Shown here: piece by piece, positions 882 through 3,692 of the stretch
Position numbering within the stretch: position 1 is the stretch's first letter
Layout of the letters: every line of letters starts with the position of its first letter
IMG/VR virus record: IMGVR_UViG_2684622619_000010
Reading direction: 5' to 3' (one strand)
Source of the DNA: a virus
Taxonomy: Duplodnaviria > Heunggongvirae > Uroviricota > Caudoviricetes
Length of the DNA stretch: 5,505 bases
Made by a program: the position numbers and the translations under genes
The notes under the pieces: model-generated
Databases searched by the model: none
What the model was told of the DNA's origin: nothing
What the model saw: only the letters and a program-made list of their open reading frames with translations

Positions 882-902
882 AAATGATAACCATTATCAT
901 TT
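882..902. promoter_or_regulatory. Perfect 9-3-9 AT-rich inverted repeat AAATGATAA-cca-TTATCATTT, Fur-box-like operator candidate
   Basis: Arms 882-890 and 894-902 are exact reverse complements. The core AATGATAAcCATTATC matches 15 of 16 positions of the enterobacterial Fur box consensus GATAATGATAATCATTATC (positions 4-19). Lies about 35 nt upstream of the GC-rich candidate cosN. Confidence 0.3.
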
Positions 903-904
903 TT

Positions 905-1090
905 CGGGTCCTCCTGGTGTGGTGGGCCTGAACACGGGGCGGGCGGCGCGGAAAAAGGCGCATTTTTTGATTTTTATGGCACCATCACCACCAGTGTAAG
1001 TTGTTGATATATAGAAAAATAAAAATTTTTAGTGTCGAGTCTGGTTGTTTTTTGTTCATCACTGGTGTGTGTTTACATAATTTTCAGGGG
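905..1090. other. Candidate cos region: GC-rich cosN-like block (935-951) plus AT-rich cosB-like tract with repeats and IHF consensus, directly upstream of the small terminase gene
   Basis: ACGGGGCGGGCGGCGCGG at 933-951 resembles the lambda cohesive-end region (..ACGGGGCGGCGACCT.. as recalled). It sits about 145 nt upstream of the Nu1-like gene, as cosN does in lambda. CTGGTGTG occurs at 914-921 and 1062-1069, and its inverse CACCAGTG at 989-996. An IHF consensus lies at 997-1009. Confidence 0.45.
997..1009 (-). promoter_or_regulatory. IHF binding-site consensus
   Basis: Minus strand reads TATCAACAACTTA, a perfect fit to WATCAANNNNTTR, embedded in an AT-rich tract between the candidate cosN and the terminase start (compare site I1 in lambda cosB). 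Confidence 0.3.
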
Positions 1091-1572: not shown

Positions 1573-3692
1573 ATCAGGTGAACGAGAGCCATAGCCGCGC
1601 ATCCGATATCTGGCGCGAAGTGGCCTCGCTGTTTCGCCCACCCAGCCGGTTACCAGTAGCGGAAGCCATCAGGCGTTATATGCGGGTTCCACGGGGAGCC
1701 AATACTTCCGGTCCGTGGGAGTCATCGCTGACGCCCTATATGATTGACCCCATTAATACATTATCAGCCCGTGAATATGACGCGGTGGTGTTTGTGGGAC
1801 CTGCGCGAACCGGGAAAACCGAAGGGCTGATTGATGGCTGGATTGTGTACGGCATCATCTGTGATCCGGCGGATATGCTGGTGGTGCAGATGACTGAGAC
1901 GAAGGCGCGTGAGCATTCCAGAACGCGTCTTTCCAGGACGTTTCGCCACAGTCCGGAGGTCAGCAAGCGCCTCAGTCCTTCCCGTAATGACAACAACGTC
2001 CACGATAAAATGTTTCTTGACGGCTCCTTCCTGAAGATTGGCTGGCCGTCGATCACCGTCTTTTCCTCTTCGGATTACCGTCGTGTGGCGCTGACGGATT
2101 ATGACCGTTTCCCTGAAAATGTGGACGGGGAAGGGGATGCCTTCACGCTGGCCTCAAAGCGTACCACCACCTTTATGTCCTCGGGGATGACCCTGGTCGA
2201 GAGTTCACCGGGGCGGGATATCACCGATACCAAATGGCGTTGTGGTGGCGCACATGAGGCACCGCCAACAACGGGGATCCTGTCACTGTATAACCGGGGA
2301 GACCGCCGCCGGTGGTACTGGCCGTGTCCGCACTGCGGGGAATATTTTCAGCCGGTGATGGATAACATGACCGGATACCGGAATAACCCGGATTTTGTGG
2401 CTGCCGGTCAGGCTGCCCGTCTGATGTGTCCGCATTGTCGCGGGCTGATTGCCCCTGAGCAGAAACGCGAACTGAATAACCAGGGGATCTGGCTTCGTGA
2501 AGGTGAACGGGCGGCGGCGGACGGCAGTATCACCGGAACGCCACGAAACTCCCGGATTGCGTCATTTTGGATGGAGGGGCCAGCTGCGGCGTTTCAGACC
2601 TGGGAACAACTGATTTTTAAACTGCTGGCGGCAGAAGAAGAGTATGAGCGAACCGGCAGTGAAGAGACCCTGAAAGCGGTGGTGAACACCGATATCGGAC
2701 GACCCTATCTGCCCCGTTCAGCCACGGAACAGCGTAAAAGTGAACTGCTTGAACAGCGTGCCGAGCCGTTTCCCCGGCGATCTGTGCCGGATGGTGTGCG
2801 TTTTATTGAGGCAACGGTTGACGTACAGGGCGGTAAAAATCGCCGTTTTGTTGTGCAGATCACCGGATACGGAGAGCAGGGGGAACGCTGGATTGTTGAT
2901 CGCTACAACATCCGGCATTCACTGCGCTGCAGTCCCAACGGTGAAAGTCTGCCGGTTGATCCGGCGGCATATCCGGAGGACTGGGATTTGTTGCTGACGG
3001 ATGTGTTCCATAAAACATGGCCGCTGGCTTCTGATCCGGATGTGCGCATGCGTCTGATGGCCATGGCGGTGGATACGGGAGGGGAAGCCGGGGTGACAGA
3101 TAACGCCTATCGTTTCTGGCGTCGTTGCCGGAGTGACGGACTGGGCAACAGGGTGTTTCTGTTCAAGGGGGATGGACTTCGCCGTGACAGGCTGATTAAC
3201 CGAACCTTCCCGGATAATACCGGCAGAAGTGCCCGCCGTGCCAGAGCCAGTGGCGATGTCGCGCTGTGGCTGGTTCAGACGGATGCGTTTAAGGATCGTG
3301 TAAATAATGCCCTGTGGCGTGACACACCAGGGCCGAACTATATCCACTTTCCCGACTGGCTGGGGCGGTGGTTTTACGATGAGCTGACCTATGAAGAGCG
3401 CGGCAGTGACGGAAAATGGCGAAAACCGGGCAGGGGCGCTAACGAAGCGTTTGACCTGCTGGTTTATGCGGATGCGCTTGCCGTTCTGCATGGTTACGAA
3501 AAGATCCGCTGGCCCTCCGCACCGGACTGGGCACAGCGGGAAACGTGGCTCGTCTTCCCGCAGGAGCGTTCTGGTGAAACGGTATCCCCGGAACTGACGG
3601 CCGGGGCAGAAAAACGCCGTCGCCGGAAGAAAAAACTGCGGACGGAGCGTGCGGAAGATAATCCATGGATAACATCAGGAGGCTGGTTGTGA
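1569..3692 (+). CDS. A: Terminase large subunit, lambda gpA family (ATPase plus nuclease), 707 aa, GTG start
   Basis: N-terminus ...SLFRPPSRLPVAEA aligns with lambda gpA ...SLFRPEPQTAVEWA; P-loop VFVGPARTGKTEG (1797-1820); paired CPHC motifs WPCPHCGEYF...MCPHCRG (2325-2438) as in lambda gpA (ACPHCGEE...); GTG 1569 overlaps the upstream stop (GTGA) with GAGG 7 nt upstream. Confidence 0.95.
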   Translation: MNQVNESHSRASDIWREVASLFRPPSRLPVAEAIRRYMRVPRGANTSGPWESSLTPYMIDPINTLSAREYDAVVFVGPARTGKTEGLIDGWIVYGIICDPADMLVVQMTETKAREHSRTRLSRTFRHSPEVSKRLSPSRNDNNVHDKMFLDGSFLKIGWPSITVFSSSDYRRVALTDYDRFPENVDGEGDAFTLASKRTTTFMSSGMTLVESSPGRDITDTKWRCGGAHEAPPTTGILSLYNRGDRRRWYWPCPHCGEYFQPVMDNMTGYRNNPDFVAAGQAARLMCPHCRGLIAPEQKRELNNQGIWLREGERAAADGSITGTPRNSRIASFWMEGPAAAFQTWEQLIFKLLAAEEEYERTGSEETLKAVVNTDIGRPYLPRSATEQRKSELLEQRAEPFPRRSVPDGVRFIEATVDVQGGKNRRFVVQITGYGEQGERWIVDRYNIRHSLRCSPNGESLPVDPAAYPEDWDLLLTDVFHKTWPLASDPDVRMRLMAMAVDTGGEAGVTDNAYRFWRRCRSDGLGNRVFLFKGDGLRRDRLINRTFPDNTGRSARRARASGDVALWLVQTDAFKDRVNNALWRDTPGPNYIHFPDWLGRWFYDELTYEERGSDGKWRKPGRGANEAFDLLVYADALAVLHGYEKIRWPSAPDWAQRETWLVFPQERSGETVSPELTAGAEKRRRRKKKLRTERAEDNPWITSGGWL

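Follow-up and report, generated by a model that had tools for sequence, protein, structure and literature searches.

A predicted lambda-type cos site beside the DUF1441 terminase gene of a lambda-like, Stx-type Escherichia coli prophage

The stretch of DNA analyzed here, 5,505 nt of IMG/VR record IMGVR_UViG_2684622619_000010 and hereafter called the window, covers a junction in the late region of a lambdoid Escherichia coli prophage. Rz-type lysis genes, partly hidden by runs of N, are separated from the terminase genes by 320 nt of non-coding DNA (776-1095), and the genes that follow encode a 158-aa DUF1441 small terminase subunit (TerS), a 707-aa gpA-type large terminase subunit (TerL), a W-like head-tail adaptor and a lambda-family portal protein. 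Within this non-coding interval, an initial annotation made from the sequence had placed a candidate cohesive-end (cos) site with a lambda-like layout, composed of a GC-rich block, repeated 8-mers and a site for integration host factor (IHF). Here we address the segment 906-1063, whose predicted elements are collected in Table 1 together with the terminase genes. None of the five related phage records inspected carries a cos annotation.

Table 1. Predicted elements of the cos region and the adjoining terminase genes, in window coordinates (a slash marks a predicted nick; A5 is the cross-genus alignment described in the text)
Feature	Coordinates	Strand	Basis
Right-arm conserved block, GATAACCATTATCATT	886..901	+	Homologous to lambda GATAATCATTATCAC just 5' of cosQ, by right-end comparison
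cosQ heptamer, GGGTCCT	906..912	+	Same heptamer at the equivalent place in lambda; invariant in close relatives
cosN nicking site, ACG/GGGCGGGCGG(CG)CGG	934..951	.	Aligns with lambda, LLS, Fels-1, mEp460 and about 50 genome loci; predicted
Predicted 5' cohesive end	937..948	+	10-nt (937-946, GGGCGGGCGG) or 12-nt (937-948, GGGCGGGCGGCG) reading
cosN-to-cosB spacer, conserved block GAAAAAGGCGCATTTTTTGATTTTT (family GGCnnnTTTTT)	951..975	+	Alignment A5, 58 genome loci
R3-like TerS element, TCACCACC	985..992	+	TCA.CAC invariant in A5; fits the R consensus; predicted
I1 IHF site, TATCAACAACTTA, perfect WATCAANNNNTTR	997..1009	-	Consensus match with 0 mismatches and conserved position; predicted
R2-like element, inverted; plus strand AGTGTCGA, minus strand TCGACACT	1031..1038	-	GTG..GA invariant in A5; partner of R1; predicted
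R1-like element, TCATCACT	1056..1063	+	TC..CACT invariant in A5; predicted
terS, DUF1441 (PF07278), 158 aa	1096..1572	+	Pfam, PHROG 141, predicted fold
terL, gpA-type, ATPase and endonuclease domains, 707 aa	1569..3692	+	PF05876 (E 2e-81); PF20454 (E 6e-84)

Among named relatives, the Stx1 prophage CP-1639 is the closest, with 99.5% identity across 776-1600; the Stx2 phage 1720a-02 (phi1720a-02) reaches 98.3% over the same segment, and a prophage carried by E. coli O157:H7 strain 611 is 100% identical across 880-1100. At least 80% of the cos region was found in 227 of 5426 complete E. coli genomes, and the region was recorded at 527 places in 325 E. coli genomes, with up to five places per genome among complete genomes. 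Relatives with the same TerS family were collected by tblastn, which returned 56 phage records, and by a single genome scan, which returned 58 loci in Enterobacterales and Pasteurellaceae. The set used for comparison comprised lambda, LLS, Fels-1, mEp460, Gifsy-2, the 58 genome loci and 80 IMG/VR loci (L075-L154), and shuffle tests on the window used 200 shuffles each.

When the region is compared with both ends of the lambda chromosome, the last 50 nt of lambda (…GATAATCATTATCACTTTACGGGTCCTTTCCGGTGATCCGACAGGTTACG, which includes CATTATCACTTTACGGGTCCT…TTACG) together with its first 18 nt (GGGCGGCGACCTCGCGGG) match up with 886-951 of the window (GATAACCATTATCATTTTTCGGGTCCTCCTGGTGTGGTGGGCCTGAACACG GGGCGGGCGGCGCGG) in a base-for-base alignment, and the window therefore carries the lambda cosQ heptamer at 906-912. 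The lambda heptamer, at lambda bp 48473-48479, is what we take to be cosQ on the basis of work from the Feiss laboratory. The heptamer of the window starts 31 bp before the predicted top-strand nick, the corresponding distance being 30 bp in lambda and 29-31 bp in most loci of the family. In addition, the combination of GGGTCCT with GGGCGG some 24-28 nt further on occurs once in the window and in none of its 200 shuffles. In lambda, cosQ is the signal for termination of packaging, and it is highly conserved among lambda-like phages (PMC4669245).

The GC-rich block at 935-951 (CGGGGCGGGCGGCGCGG), whose last base lies 145 nt before the TerS ATG at 1096, had been likened to the lambda cohesive ends; both its coordinates and the likeness are borne out, the block being homologous to lambda cosN. 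The lambda counterpart reads ACG/GGGCGGCGACCT/CGCGGG, and what the window conserves of it is the left half-site and the CG flanks. The alignment with related cos sites that had been suggested as a check was obtained with both lambda ends and with LLS, Fels-1 and mEp460. Across about 90 distinct loci the same blocks follow one another in the same order, namely C(A/G)CG, a G-rich 12-mer, CGCGG(G/A)A and GGCnnnTTTTT; these are followed by an R3-like triplet-repeat element and an IHF-like site, then by an inverted and a direct element with a T-tract between them, and last by the TerS ATG.

Downstream of cosN, the interval up to the terminase gene is organized like lambda cosB, the segment that holds the terminase-binding R elements. 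The order R3 on the plus strand, I1, R2 on the minus strand and R1 on the plus strand is kept across genera in both position and orientation. Lambda has the same order, with R2 inverted (PMC4669245, PMC9026076) and I1 located between R3 and R2 (PMC4669245). In the window R3 occupies bp 49-56 from the predicted end; an R3 equivalent is found at bp 45-49 in all family members, the value for the window being bp 47 when counted from the CATCAC motif, and lambda R3 spans bp 50-65 (PMC9026076). In the alignment A5, which comprises Escherichia, Buttiauxella, Providencia, one further Enterobacteriaceae genome and Salmonella Gifsy-2, the invariant positions are few: the CGCG of the cosN right flank, the T-run, TCA.CAC (985-991), GTG..GA (1032-1038), the T-tract and TC..CACT (1056-1063). 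The conserved T-tract, GTTGTTTTTTGT at 1044-1055, lies directly 5' of R1. Gifsy-2 carries three near-identical 11-mers, TC(A/G)(G/A)CACTGAA, of which the middle one is inverted, and its R2 and R1 form a perfect 10-bp inverted repeat (CAGTGTCGAA / TTCGACACTG). From the Gifsy-2 11-mers and the positions invariant in A5, the repeat unit is therefore TC[AG]NCA[CT][CT].

The perfect IHF consensus reported at 997-1009 is indeed present, as the single match in the window and on the minus strand. It lies at the position of lambda I1, flanked by the R3-like and the inverted R2-like elements, and this arrangement, which had been proposed as cosB-like, extends across the family: a site with at most one mismatch occurs at bp 61-64, in the same orientation, in 74 of 93 distinct family loci, as compared with 6% of shuffled controls. 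The A/T-rich tract 5' of the core plays a role in IHF sites. Such a tract accompanies the core consensus here, as 1010-1030 (ATATAGAAAAATAAAAATTTT) is A/T-rich and lies 5' of the core on the minus strand. The proposal of a lambda-like cosB is accordingly upheld with other repeats than those first named: the conserved unit is TC[AG]NCA[CT][CT], and the three 8-mers originally offered as its repeats are set aside, as discussed below.

The product of the gene next to the site is, by its PHROG 141 assignment and its predicted fold, a Nu1-like small terminase with a putative winged-helix N-terminal domain. TerS matches PHROG 141 (terminase small subunit) and cross-matches PHROG 57, and for lambda Nu1 the reverse is found. 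The two proteins align collinearly with 22% identity, and N11, Q14, L15, G20 and T25 of the helix-turn-helix are conserved. Comparison of the TerS profile with lambda Nu1 by hhalign was likewise collinear and weak (E 0.0015, probability 16%). When PDB sequences were searched with a profile of the TerS alignment, just one spurious weak match (2ncg) came up, so that sequence alone does not reach Nu1, and NCBIfam holds no model for TerS, which is labeled 'DUF1441 family protein' in RefSeq/PGAP. In the AlphaFold model, residues 1-65 (pLDDT 82) are predicted to form a strand, helices at 12-19 and 23-32, a wing at 33-47 and a third helix.

The R elements of the family fall into two classes that go along with the sequence of the predicted wing. 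In a survey of 99 loci, a TerS wing of the type …SNLK(L/I)Y is accompanied by CAC in R2 and R1 at 31 of 31 distinct loci, the window, mEp460 and Gifsy-2 included, and a wing of the type …xKxK(L)Y by CAT in R2 and R1 at 52-53 of 53 loci, among them VT1-Sakai, Fels-1 and LLS. Particularly, the recognition helix, HRQTVAA, is nearly invariant, and the co-varying residues are located in the predicted wing (about 34-46). Both classes are present among the Stx-type prophages of E. coli. Between the window and VT1-Sakai, identity is at least 85% as far as 975, falls to 35-85% over 976-1375 and is 100% from 1376 on, and the divergent stretch corresponds to cosB plus roughly the first 70 residues of TerS. 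The same pattern of exchange is seen between loci L022 and L019, which represent an independent case. These alignments indicate that cosB and the DNA-binding domain of TerS are swapped as one cassette, and the wing of TerS may contact the R elements directly.

A more far-reaching interpretation, which we put forward tentatively, is that the wing (…SNLK… or …xKxK…) rather than the recognition helix sets specificity by reading C·G versus T·A in the 8-bp R element (TC[AG]NCAC versus TC[AG]NCAT), giving at least two insulated specificities, and that the length of the cohesive end varies among 10, 11 and 12 nt in near-identical Stx-type prophages, since the nicks would follow the conserved flanks and not a fixed 12-bp stagger. 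In this regard, the stretch between ACG and CGCGG measures 10 nt in prophages of the window type, 11 nt in those of the VT1-Sakai type and 12 nt in other E. coli prophages, with an identical downstream spacer, and this variation may represent a polymorphism in cohesive-end length. The G-rich cosN variants observed among the 80 IMG/VR E. coli loci are GGGCGGGCGG, GGGCGGAGGGG, GGGCGGGCGGG, GGGCGGGAGGGG and others.

The position of the top-strand nick between 936 and 937, after ACG, is well supported, because the left half-site is conserved, and the position of the bottom-strand nick is uncertain between a 10-nt and a 12-nt reading. With 12 nt (ACG/GGGCGGGCGGCG/CGG), the CG flanks are kept and 10 of 16 positions are two-fold symmetric by manual count; lambda cosN also has 10 of 16 symmetric positions (PMC9026076). 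The 10-nt reading agrees with how the conserved CGCGG[GA]A block aligns and with the 9-nt precedent of Cr-LKS3. From ACG to CGCGG the distance is 12 nt in lambda, LLS, Fels-1, reference mEp460 and about 50 genome loci. Two phage records show peculiarities at cosN. ASU11 (ON416862.2, L004), sequenced after mitomycin C induction, is 97% identical across the region and lacks the exact 44 bp 929-972 that hold cosN and its flanks. This gap is no more than suggestive: it could be a true deletion, or it could have arisen where the two physical ends of a linear virion genome were joined in the assembly, in which case it would point indirectly to virion ends at this site. The record of mEp460_4F5 (LR595868.1, L008/L016) begins 5 nt 5' of GGGCGG with a cosN 3 nt shorter than that of reference mEp460 (JQ182728), which is probably an end-of-contig artifact at the physical virion end. 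Among the IMG/VR matches, mostly prophage regions of isolate genomes, none ended informatively at cos.

Taken together, these findings lead us to consider 906-1063 a lambda-type cos site of a lambda-like, Stx-type E. coli prophage, with a probability of about 85%, and one that most likely works as lambda cos does. The cosN half-site with its CG flanks and partial symmetry, cosQ about 30 bp upstream, three R elements with an inverted R2 and an IHF site, and the immediate vicinity of terS and terL are all found at the locus. In addition, phi1720a-02 has the same cosN, R3, R2 and R1 with a perfect I1, and it forms infective virions that lysogenize new hosts; the exact configuration of the window is the commonest among the 80 IMG/VR loci. 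The cos of the window is, in line with this notion, probably functional.

Several observations weigh against this interpretation. The IHF consensus is weak when taken by itself, as at least one match occurs in 31 of 200 shuffles, that is, with a chance of about 15% somewhere in the window. The R elements are degenerate and 8 bp long, a repeat finder run on the window alone did not report them, and they are assigned because relatives share them. The co-variation between R class and wing reflects co-inheritance of a linked cassette, which is compatible with direct contact and does not prove it. The spacing of the ACG and CGCGG flanks is 10 nt in the window as compared with 12 in nearly all family members, and lambda is sensitive to shifts beyond 1-2 bp in the spacing of cosN and cosB (PMC4669245). 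CP-1639, the closest named relative, is called a cryptic prophage in its record, so that this copy may never be used. Finally, mapped virion DNA termini were not found for this phage or its closest relatives in the literature and records consulted; the Stx-phage papers among these report no such termini for terminases of this type, and the one on O157 Sakai treats Sp4 and Sp14 only.

Some of these points are also what would speak for a decayed cos remnant of a cryptic prophage, in which cosN is 2 nt short, cutting has been lost and no virion ends are made: the near identity with CP-1639, the 10 rather than 12 nt from ACG to CGCGG and the narrow spacing tolerance of lambda could all be read in that way. 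We consider such decay unlikely, as phi1720a-02, whose cosN and R elements are identical, yields infective virions, the 10-nt form outnumbers every other among the 80 E. coli prophage loci, R3 at bp 47 is within the range of the family, and cosQ, I1, R2 and R1 are intact, as are the reading frames of both terminase genes. Packaging by the headful (pac) mechanism, with the GC block as a relic or a regulatory sequence, would draw on nothing beyond the lack of direct end data and is very improbable: TerL is of the gpA type with both diagnostic Pfam domains, cosQ and the left half-site of cosN match lambda in sequence and spacing, and the cohesive ends annotated for LLS and reported for Cr-LKS3 belong to phages with the same TerS and TerL families.

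The repeats of the initial annotation constitute a different kind of alternative, namely that TerS would recognize the 8-mers CTGGTGTG (914-921 and 1062-1069) and CACCAGTG (989-996) instead of TC[AG]NCA[CT][CT]. The direct copies are present where they had been reported, and so is CACCAGTG, which had been described as an inverted copy of CTGGTGTG and is not its exact reverse complement: that would be CACACCAG, and CACCAGTG has only CTGGTG in common with the direct repeat. Its exact inverted partner is CACTGGTG at 1060-1067, the two forming a perfect inverted pair at a distance of 63 nt. The 8-mers are exact copies and occur more often in the window than expected (CTGGTGTG, three copies versus 0.24 expected, a number reached in 0 of 200 shuffles; CACCAGTG, two copies versus 0.17 expected, reached in 2 of 200), and two of them lie on either side of the IHF site. 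However, the third copy of CTGGTGTG is located inside terL, on the minus strand at 3323-3330, and thus such 8-mers recur by chance in this sequence. The copy at 914-921 lies between cosQ and cosN and therefore outside cosB, on the arm packaged last; it varies among near-identical relatives, reading CTGGTGGG in CP-1639, 1720a-02, ASU11 and VT1-Sakai, and its occurrence is probably due to chance. The copies at 989-996 and 1062-1069 merely overlap the 3' edges of R3 and R1, the overlap of R1 being 2 nt with the latter and 4 nt with the inverted 8-mer at 1060-1067. The outer parts of these 8-mers, AGTG at 989-996 and GGTG at 1062-1069, vary in close relatives (CACCACTA, CACCATTG, CACTGGCG, CACCGGA), whereas TCACCACC and TCATCACT, which adjoin them, do not change from genus to genus. 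Moreover, nothing in the set of 8-mers corresponds to the conserved inverted element at 1031-1038, which had been overlooked along with cosQ. Recognition of the 8-mers by TerS is therefore quite improbable.

The lambda-type cos site that we favor would operate as follows, where homology, element positions, conservation, cosB-TerS co-inheritance and protein families and folds come from the analysis, and binding, bending, nick positions and overhang length are projected from them. During late lytic growth, TerS dimers would bind R3, the inverted R2 and R1 of cosB, and a bend introduced at I1 by host IHF would bring R3 and R2 together. The resulting complex would place the gpA-type TerL on cosN, where TerL would nick the top strand between 936 and 937 and, 10-12 nt beyond that point, the bottom strand, leaving a G+C-rich 5' overhang that starts with GGGCGG. 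The DNA to the right, with cosB and the terminase genes first, would then be pumped into the prohead until cosQ and cosN of the next cos signal the terminating cut. The specificity of packaging would be seated in the cassette formed by cosB and the TerS DNA-binding domain.

Regarding the remainder of the region, the arm at 776-912 is 91-98% identical to phages that have a lambda Nu1-type terminase (PhiR5_1 and many Stx1a phages), and in PhiR5_1 and the Stx1a phages with lambda Nu1 the shared arm is followed by GGGCGGCGACCT at the matching position. The right arm and cosQ are thus common to both terminase types, and therefore a mosaic (recombination) joint lies between cosQ and cosN. No promoter-like or terminator-like sites and no Rfam families were found in 776-1200, so that no rival signal of these kinds is present in the region. 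A 49-codon open reading frame on the plus strand at 850-999, which runs across cosQ, cosN and R3, was examined as a possible gene and discarded; it probably represents an artifact of annotating conserved cos DNA, because 1-nt indels of cosN in close relatives break the frame. The same reading frame is annotated as 'hypothetical protein' in 1720a-02 and matches PHROG 5188. Upstream, two N runs of 50 nt each, at 467-516 and 725-774, mask parts of the open reading frames of the Rz region and a small one at 636-812.

The assignment would place the virion ends and the packaging array of a common family of E. coli prophages, which includes Stx1 and Stx2 phages such as CP-1639, 1720a-02 and VT1-Sakai. 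Its coordinates can help to linearize phage genomes, to read data of the PhageTerm type and to predict cross-packaging of co-resident prophages and satellites. If specificity set by the wing and the variation in end length proved true, they would govern cross-packaging and the annealing of ends between co-resident prophages in pathogenic E. coli. Additionally, the Pfam and PGAP name of TerS could be updated to Nu1-like small terminase. A lambda-type site is what would be expected at this locus, and therefore changes no concept; the points of specialist interest are the 10/11/12-nt polymorphism of cosN and the exchange of cosB-TerS wing cassettes.

As regards known systems, the window shares with lambda the identical cosQ GGGTCCT, the identical left half of cosN (ACG/GGGCGG) with its CG flanks, the order of R3, IHF site, inverted R2 and R1 with R3 about 50 bp from the end, and the location of cos between the lysis genes and terS-terL, together with a gpA-type TerL and a Nu1-like, putative winged-helix TerS N-terminus. 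It differs from lambda in the overhang's right half (GCGGCG versus CGACCT), in the flank spacing (10 versus 12 nt) and in the R elements, which look shorter (TC[AG]NCAC[CT] versus CGTTTCC…). The cosB of the window is also more compact, with the TerS ATG at bp 160 as compared with 191 in lambda and the centers of R2 and R1 25 bp apart as compared with about 43, and its TerS is only a remote sequence relative of lambda Nu1.

A closer likeness is found in the group of mEp213, LLS, Fels-1, Gifsy-2 and mEp460, which has DUF1441 TerS proteins and Gifsy-type heads. Their TerS proteins are 43-61% identical to that of the window, and they carry the same blocks: ACG/GGGCGG…CGCGG[GA]A…GGCnnnTTTTT, R3, IHF site, R2, T-tract and R1. 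The LLS record starts at an annotated 12-nt 5' cohesive end, GGGCGGCGCGCT (bp 1-12), with TerS from bp 130; the LLS cos has been discussed, with its end inferred from mEp213 (PMC12315714). Similarly, the record of the Hafnia phage yong2 starts at CGCGGG, just after the 12 nt. With regard to R class, the window goes with mEp460 and Gifsy-2 (CAC, SNLK wing), whereas LLS, mEp213, Fels-1 and VT1-Sakai have CAT. In LLS-type phages, unlike in the window, R1 and the TerS start codon overlap, and cos measures about 30 bp less.

In the pair of lambda and phage 21, specificity is defined by cosB and the Nu1 N-terminus (PMC4669245). The pairs window/VT1-Sakai and L022/L019 are alike in that they share cosQ, cosN, the TerS C-terminus and TerL at 92-100% and differ in cosB and about 70 N-terminal residues of TerS. 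They differ from lambda and 21 in that the recognition helix is nearly invariant here and the wing residues co-vary, and distinct specificities are here suggested by sequence. Among Stx phages, Lys8385Vzw has a different cos, with a 3' overhang. Outside the enterobacteria, the Cylindrospermopsis phage Cr-LKS3 combines a DUF1441-like TerS (36% identity) with a lambda-like genome layout. Its record starts at the reported 9-nt 5' end, GGGCTCGCG, which begins with GGGC and is immediately followed by CGCGGAAG…GGCAGTTTTT, equal to the right-flank block at 947-967 of the window; it differs from the window in its cyanobacterial host and in the reported overhang of 9 nt. Together, these comparisons identify the site as an ordinary member, unannotated in the records inspected, of the well-understood lambda-type cos class.

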